This document shows, piece after piece, positions 22,119-23,089 of a DNA stretch of 64,000 nucleotides. Made by a program: the position numbers and the translations under genes. Origin of the DNA: Escherichia coli (GTDB lineage Bacteria; Pseudomonadota; Gammaproteobacteria; Enterobacterales; Enterobacteriaceae); the NCBI RefSeq assembly GCF_044324875.1, contig NZ_CP172185.1, one strand, 5' to 3'. How positions within the stretch are numbered: the stretch's first letter is position 1; each line of letters opens with the position of its first letter. The notes beneath the pieces were generated by a model. That model did not search any database. It was not told the origin of the DNA and saw nothing but the letters and a program-made list of their open reading frames with translations.

Positions 22119-23089
22119 ATGAATATGGAAGAAATTGTGGCCCTTAGTGTAAAGCATAACGTCTCGGATCTACACCTGTGCAGCGCCTGGCCCGCACGAT
22201 GGCGCATTCGCGGGCGAATGGAAGCTGCGCCGTTTGATGCGCCGGACGTCGAAGAGCTACTGCGGGAGTGGCTGGATGACGATCAGCGGGCAATATTGCT
22301 GGAGAATGGTCAGTTGGATTTTGCTGTGTCGCTGGCGGAAAACCAGCGGTTGCGTGGCAGTGCGTTCGCGCAACGGCAAGGTATTTCTCTGGCATTACGG
22401 TTGTTACCTTCGCACTGTCCACTGCTCGAACAGCTTGGTGCGCCACCGGTATTGCCGGAATTACTCAAGAGCGAGAATGGCCTGATTCTGGTGACGGGGG
22501 CGACGGGGAGCGGCAAATCTACCACGCTGGCGGCGATGGTTGGCTATCTCAATCAACATGCCGATGCGCATATTCTGACGCTGGAAGATCCTGTTGAATA
22601 TCTCTATGCCAGCCAGCGATGTTTGATCCAGCAGCGGGAAATTGGTTTGCACTGTATGACGTTCGCATCGGGATTGCGGGCCGCATTGCGGGAAGATCCC
22701 GATGTGATTTTGCTCGGAGAACTGCGTGACAGCGAGACAATCCGTCTGGCGCTGACGGCAGCAGAAACCGGACACCAACTTTACATACGCGTGGTGCGGC
22801 GCAGGCAGTTGAGCGACTGGTGGATTCATTTCCAGCGCAGGAAAAAGATCCCGTGCGTAATCAACTGGCAGGTAGTTTACGGGCGGTGTTGTCACAAAAG
22901 CTGGAAGTGGATAAACAGGAAGGACGCGTGGCGCTGTTTGAATTGCTGGTTAACACACCCGCGGTGGGGAATTTGATTCGCGAAGGGAAAACCCACCAGT
23001 TACCGCATGTTATTCAAACCGGGCAGCAGGTGGGGATGTTAACGTTTCAGCAGAGTTATCAGCAGCGGGTGGGGGAAGGACGTTTGTGA
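22119..23089 (+). pseudogene. yggR: PilT-like type IV pilus retraction ATPase YggR, disrupted by a frameshift near 22776-22780
   Basis: N-terminal reading frame (Walker A GATGSGKST) runs into non-PilT sequence after TGH; the PilT C-terminus (LHTRGAAQAVERLVDSFPAQEKD...) continues in another frame from about 22781. Confidence 0.7.

Follow-up and report, generated by a model that had tools for sequence, protein, structure and literature searches.

YggR has been described as the PilT orthologue of E. coli (bioRxiv 10.1101/2021.10.23.465551). The known system against which we compare it is PilT of P. aeruginosa (3JVU/3JVV), a retraction motor with which intact YggR aligns from end to end (E = 3.8e-83); both proteins keep the Walker A motif, the Asp box, the Walker B motif, the His box and an AIRNLIRE-like motif. 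The histidines of the His box have been reported to be essential for PilT activity (PMC5065972, from which we also take the role of the atypical Walker B motif), and in the related motor PilB a histidine of this box makes contact with the gamma-phosphate and mediates subunit cooperation (PMC5424180). In YggR, the segment AAETGH219LVLATLH226T aligns with AAETGHLVFGTLHT of P. aeruginosa PilT, the His box, as part of the same end-to-end alignment with 3JVU. Intact E. coli YggR (b2950; WP_001305834.1) is 326 aa long and is encoded at the locus yggS-yggR-ruvX, and its gene is present at a coverage of at least 80% in 5,424 of the 5,426 complete E. coli genomes in RefSeq, so that it is evidently a gene that is normally retained.

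The allele described here occupies the same yggS-yggR-ruvX locus and uses the same start codon as the gene for WP_001305834.1, but it is without 10 bp and encodes 219 native residues followed by 66 aberrant ones. It lies in a window of 64,000 nucleotides, the whole stretch of DNA that was analysed, which comes from an E. coli chromosome and is shown by alignment to be collinear with strain KE55 over positions 3715-64000; the gene order common to the two is pheV, speC, mutY, ansB, hemW, yggS, yggR, ruvX, gshB, metK, speA, tkt, pgk, argO, serA and ssrS. The yggR gene is on the + strand and starts at the ATG at 22119 (annotated relatives use the equivalent ATG), 17 bp from the divergent start of yggS. 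As the gene is monocistronic and convergent with ruvX, no polar effect of its disruption is expected. Among the papers listed for the name yggR, none concerns the 10-bp deletion allele.

A 10-bp deletion within the His box

When window positions 22119-23089 were aligned with the intact yggR of E. coli O158:H23 CFIAFB20140388 (L001:3000-3980), the alignment comprised 981 columns, of which 971 were identical and the rest formed one 10-column gap, CTGGTGCTGG, after window position 22775. The gap is the sole difference from the intact gene, all 971 of the 971 retained bases being identical; owing to a 1-nt ambiguity at a C, the deletion can equally be written as TGGTGCTGGC missing after 22776. The deleted bases correspond to gene nt 658-667: the codons for Leu220-Val221-Leu222 together with base one of the Ala223 codon. 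The native frame is broken midway through the His box (TGH/LVLATLHT, where the slash marks the break), its last residues being Thr217-Gly218-His219. The features of the disrupted gene are these:

22119-22775, + strand: native-frame 5' part of yggR (codons 1-219, Met1-His219), identical to intact yggR; it spans the N-terminal domain, the Walker A, Asp box and Walker B motifs, and the His box up to its third residue
22497-22523, + strand: Walker A motif (P-loop), G127-A-T-G-S-G-K133-S-T135, from the translation; aligns with PilT GPTGSGKST (3JVU/3JVV)
22701-22730, + strand: atypical Walker B motif, D195-VILLGELR-D204, including Glu201; aligns with PilT DIILVGEMRD (3JVU)
22767-22777, + strand: deletion junction, where the T217-G218-H219 remnant (22767-22775) is followed directly by CA, the second and third bases of the Ala223 codon
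Between 22775 and 22776, + strand: the missing CTGGTGCTGG, from the alignment with intact yggR
22776-22976, + strand: out-of-frame tail of 66 codons (QLYIRVVRRRQ...PRWGI) and then TGA, outside the TIGR01420 and Pfam T2SSE alignments
22778-23089, + strand: stranded native 3' part in the -1 frame, Thr224-Leu326 and the stop codon, from the translation; encodes His226, the second His-box histidine, and AVGNLIRE (residues 285-292)

Read from the ATG at 22119, the frame proceeds to ...AAETGH, continues as QLYIRVVRRRQ... and ends at a TGA at 22974-22976, giving a product of 285 aa in place of the 326 aa of the intact protein. The native C-terminus, Thr224-Leu326, sits in the -1 frame and extends from 22778 to the TGA at 23087-23089. 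A first-pass annotation of this DNA had claimed a frameshift right after TGH, a claim borne out by translation, alignment and family models alike, and its estimate of a deletion of roughly 10 bp proves to be exactly 10 by alignment. It was also right to place the PilT C-terminus in another frame, although the start that it gave for this segment, about 22781, has to be moved to 22778, the first base of the Thr224 codon.

Consequences for the YggR protein

TIGR01420 (pilT_fam), the NCBIfam model of PilT/PilU family type 4a pilus ATPases, scores the 285-aa product at 314.5 bits over residues 2-219, equivalent to profile positions 1-221 of 343, as compared with 466.6 bits over residues 2-325 of the intact relative. 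The product thus falls short of the curated cut-off of 319.1 bits, and its match ends at profile position 221 and is not near full length. The model picks up the gene again in the downstream ORF 22820-23086, at profile positions 241-329, and Pfam T2SSE matches the 285-aa product at residues 63-220. The locus is therefore a yggR/pilT gene by descent whose product no longer qualifies for the TIGR01420 family.

What the product retains and what it has lost can be followed motif by motif. The P-loop, GxxGxGK(S/T), is present (G127-T135), and the Asp box LEDPVEY and the atypical Walker B motif DVILLGELRD (195-204), which carries the catalytic glutamate, are in frame, their PilT counterparts being IEDPIEF and DIILVGEMRD. 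The two-histidine His box (TGHLVxxTLHT) is not intact in the product, in which only T217-G218-H219 is left, Leu220-Leu222 being deleted and His226 out of frame; the C-terminal AIRNLIRE-like signature is absent from it as well, since AVGNLIRE (285-292) is encoded only in the stranded -1 frame. Set against PilT, the product diverges at the equivalent of His222 and is without the equivalent of His229 and all that lies beyond.

The 10-bp deletion inside the His box shifts the frame such that only the 285-aa product can be made, and that product, deprived of the second His-box histidine and of the C-terminal 107 residues, including AVGNLIRE, would presumably be catalytically dead, with the result that YggR-driven pilus retraction would be lost in the strain. 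The motifs argue strongly for a loss of YggR function, and the earlier suggestion that yggR is probably non-functional in this genome draws support from the deletion, the split family match and the broken His box. The allele accordingly carries a prediction, namely that any type IV pili of this strain should not be retractable by YggR.

Because no simple repeat has the deleted bases as its unit, the change is irreversible. The type IV pilus genes of E. coli are poorly expressed under most conditions studied, and for this reason the loss of yggR is probably tolerated. Most likely, the allele is a null one, recent and irreversible, of a gene that is known, monocistronic and non-essential.

Evidence that the deletion is real and recent

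In public records, precisely this 285-aa product occurs on three contigs, assembled independently from sequencing runs. Two of them span the junction and agree with the window at 100.000% identity, SRR31072984_23 along 15,620 bp and SRR31073000_584 along 6,856 bp; the two runs may share their study or isolate with the window, which makes their independence partial, and what they document is the allele as seen in assemblies.

A second line of evidence comes from a relative that has kept the gene. The HemW allele of the window, encoded 2.2 kb from yggR, is a rare one, on record from only four contigs. DAOCXM010000013.1 (GCA_029450875.1) carries this rare hemW allele and has 0 mismatches to window positions 17019-29922 (12.9 kb), but it keeps the 10 bp, and its yggR is intact at 326 aa. 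Because the window and GCA_029450875.1 differ over 12.9 kb by nothing but the 10 bp, both assemblies are shown to be accurate.

A third line of evidence comes from complete genomes. In a search of RefSeq, which has 5,426 of these for E. coli, the top matches along the whole of yggR are all at 99.0% with a 980-bp span, from which it follows that the best-matching complete genomes carry the ten bases. An 80-nt probe spanning the junction had no full-length exact match in the same 5,426 genomes; all 953 full-length matches to it stood at 88.9%, the value expected for a 10-base gap. Of the indels listed between the window and KE55, all but two are intergenic or in an unnamed hypothetical ORF of 84 nt; the two are the yggR deletion and the loss of 1 bp in argO, and they alone affect genes whose product has a name. 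With so few genic indels, the window is not indel-ridden.

We consider it highly probable that the 10-bp deletion is genuine, recent and lineage-specific and that it inactivates the E. coli PilT orthologue; taken together, the results indicate that it arose very recently, on a terminal branch. In this respect, the allele resembles ordinary small-frameshift pseudogenes, which likewise have one short indel in a gene that is otherwise intact and an intact copy in a near-isogenic relative, and its sole oddity by comparison is that one end of the deletion falls inside a Dcm (CCWGG) site. It is, in our reading, an ordinary strain-specific pseudogene of an already known kind. As such, it provides a clean clonal marker that splits the sublineage from its near-isogenic relative, but its significance beyond the strain is little.

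Selection, drift and the argO allele

If the deletion is real, it might still have been favoured by positive selection, for instance through hyperpiliation, altered adhesion, or a block of the phage or DNA entry that depends on retraction. That the allele is common to at least two or three sequenced samples, and that it disrupts a gene which almost all complete genomes retain, could be taken in this sense. However, the samples may be clonal replicates, the case is that of a single event in a single clone, and the analysis documented no further real losses in parallel; the poor expression of E. coli type IV pili under most conditions studied also speaks against an advantage, and the frameshift that argO has suffered in the same window fits ordinary drift. 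We therefore regard positive selection as unlikely and favour a loss that is simply tolerated.

The argO allele deserves a description of its own. This gene for an arginine exporter of the LysE family, at 51126-51760 on the + strand, is split by a 1-bp deletion, the loss of G from GCG-ATG, with the break at 51397/51398. What is left is a 91-aa ORF (51126..51401) and a 120-aa ORF (51398..51760), the stop of the one and the start of the other overlapping as ATGA. The same split, in DNA that is 100% identical, is found in GCA_002467655.1 and GCA_958308375.1 and is absent from the complete RefSeq E. coli genomes, where the best match is 98.9%. The argO split is therefore an older marker of the lineage than the yggR deletion.

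Frameshifted yggR records and the possibility of an artefact

The first-pass annotation had allowed for an error in the assembly, and it is worth asking whether the cell has the 10 bp after all and they dropped out only in sequencing or assembly, for example by a methylation-related basecalling error at a Dcm site. The deletion does start inside CCTGG, which is such a site, and errors of one base at CCWGG are well known as an artefact of nanopore sequencing. Moreover, other yggR genes in the public data appear to break in the same place. The 90% cluster to which the frameshifted product belongs has 14 other members, all of them yggR frameshift products, and most of these break at codons 217-221 (GH/WCWQLY, GH/RCWQLY, GH/LCWQLY, TD/TWCWQLY and G/IWCWRHY), although membership of a 90% cluster itself favours breaks in this region and into this frame.

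The two cluster members that we checked have each lost 1 nt within the Dcm site (CACCGGTG and CACTGGTG), and both stem from visibly noisy assemblies: GCA_013422845.1 (L019) shows 43 gap openings in ~8 kb relative to the window and has every neighbouring gene fragmented, and on the contig from SRR10211253 (L020) the neighbouring genes are split too. These frameshifts are like that of the window in that they break at codons 218-221 and enter the same frame; they differ from it in being changes of 1 nt accompanied by many other indels, whereas the change in the window is one of 10 nt in error-free surroundings. Most likely, the two are methylation-related basecalling errors and not real alleles, in keeping with a report that DNA modification induces read errors in nanopore sequencing (PMC11610603). 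A biological mutation hotspot at codons 217-221 was considered as an explanation of the cluster and rejected, the two members examined being 1-nt deletions in indel-riddled assemblies. A practical lesson is that, before a pseudogene is called at a CCWGG site, the quality of the assembly around it should be examined.

For the window itself, an artefact is very unlikely as the source of the missing bases. The errors that noisy data produced at this site in the two assemblies checked removed 1 nt and not 10; two other run assemblies repeat the junction within stretches of 15.6 and 6.9 kb that match the window perfectly, a precision not to be had from noisy data; relative to KE55, the named-product genes of the window contain just two of the listed indels; and the relative with the intact gene is otherwise identical over 12.9 kb. 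The better reading remains that of a genuine deletion.

The Dcm site and the origin of the deletion

Given a genuine deletion, the Dcm site invites speculation about how it arose. The deletion starts within the CCTGG at gene nt 657-661; yggR has just one other Dcm site, at gene nt 68. The microhomology at the junction amounts to a single C (1 nt). By rough arithmetic, which is post hoc and concerns a single event, ~2-3% of random 10-bp deletions would be expected to have one end at a Dcm site of yggR. The Vsr endonuclease nicks the Dcm site at C/CTGG, and the left end of the deletion coincides with this nick point, while the missing tract is about as long as a tract of very-short-patch repair. 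It is tempting to see in this the footprint of aberrant very-short-patch repair at a Dcm site, but we would put little faith in the idea and think it highly improbable. If it were true, Dcm sites would be hotspots for real short deletions, beside C-to-T transitions and basecalling errors. Slipped-strand mispairing was rejected as an origin: the two CTGG copies in the deleted tract are 6 nt apart, and slippage between them would remove 6 nt, not 10.

Recoding or assembly of split halves, an improbable rescue

Almost certainly wrong is the notion that yggR still functions, either because a programmed -1 frameshift restores the protein or because its halves are made separately and then assemble: although both frames are open between 22730 and 22976 and a relaxed, shift-prone G_AAA_AAG occurs in the zero frame at 22841, which is 66 nt beyond the junction, a scan of this overlap zone found no canonical X_XXY_YYZ heptamer, a shift at 22841 would still put ~23 nonsense residues where the His box should be, and relatives, including the one that is identical over 12.9 kb, have a single uninterrupted ORF of 326 codons. 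Since the codons for Leu220-Leu222 are physically absent, no recoding could restore the native protein in any case. Genes with programmed -1 frameshifts, of the dnaX or IS3 type, have a slippery heptamer and a conserved two-frame organisation, and yggR here has neither; a signal that would restore the full protein, a prospect raised in the first-pass annotation, was looked for and not found. As to separate translation, the C-terminal frame has no start codon before the GTG at 22820 (Val238) and no Shine-Dalgarno-like sequence there, so that His226 cannot be separately translated. The same zone, 22730-22976, holds no homopolymer of at least six bases, Rfam gave no matches over 21000-24500, and scans for consensus promoters and terminators at the yggR locus returned nothing relevant.

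Genomic surroundings

We considered and rejected the idea of a Shigella-like, pseudogene-rich or IS-rich genome, as window positions 3715-64000 are ordered as in KE55 and are free of IS insertions. The lineage has no close relative among the complete RefSeq E. coli genomes, as judged from the best matches among the 5,426, which reach 99.4% over 10000-34999 and 98.6-98.7% over 39000-63999; draft genomes of it do exist. Those of its short-read contigs that were read end at about 17019-17357, inside the gene for a TRAP small permease, two Logan contigs at 17357 and GCA_029450875.1 at 17019; a repeat elsewhere in the genome or low coverage may account for these ends.

The main extra segment of the window relative to KE55 is ~1.1 kb of additional DNA at 49903-51047, between mscS and argO, and it carries a gene of the DctP family. 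The ORF in question, 49967..51010 on the - strand, encodes a TRAP solute-binding protein of 347 aa, and the exact protein is found on at least 1,000 public contigs, which marks it as a common accessory gene.

Collinearity with KE55 ends exactly at the 3' end of the pheV tRNA-Phe gene (~3715-3790, - strand). Beyond pheV, KE55 has its kps capsule region, whereas positions 1-3714 of the window are the end of a different island, with the following ORFs next to pheV:

2398-3510: ORF resembling a tyrosine recombinase
775-2367: ORF of 530 aa
99-845: fragment resembling the C-terminal part of a helicase
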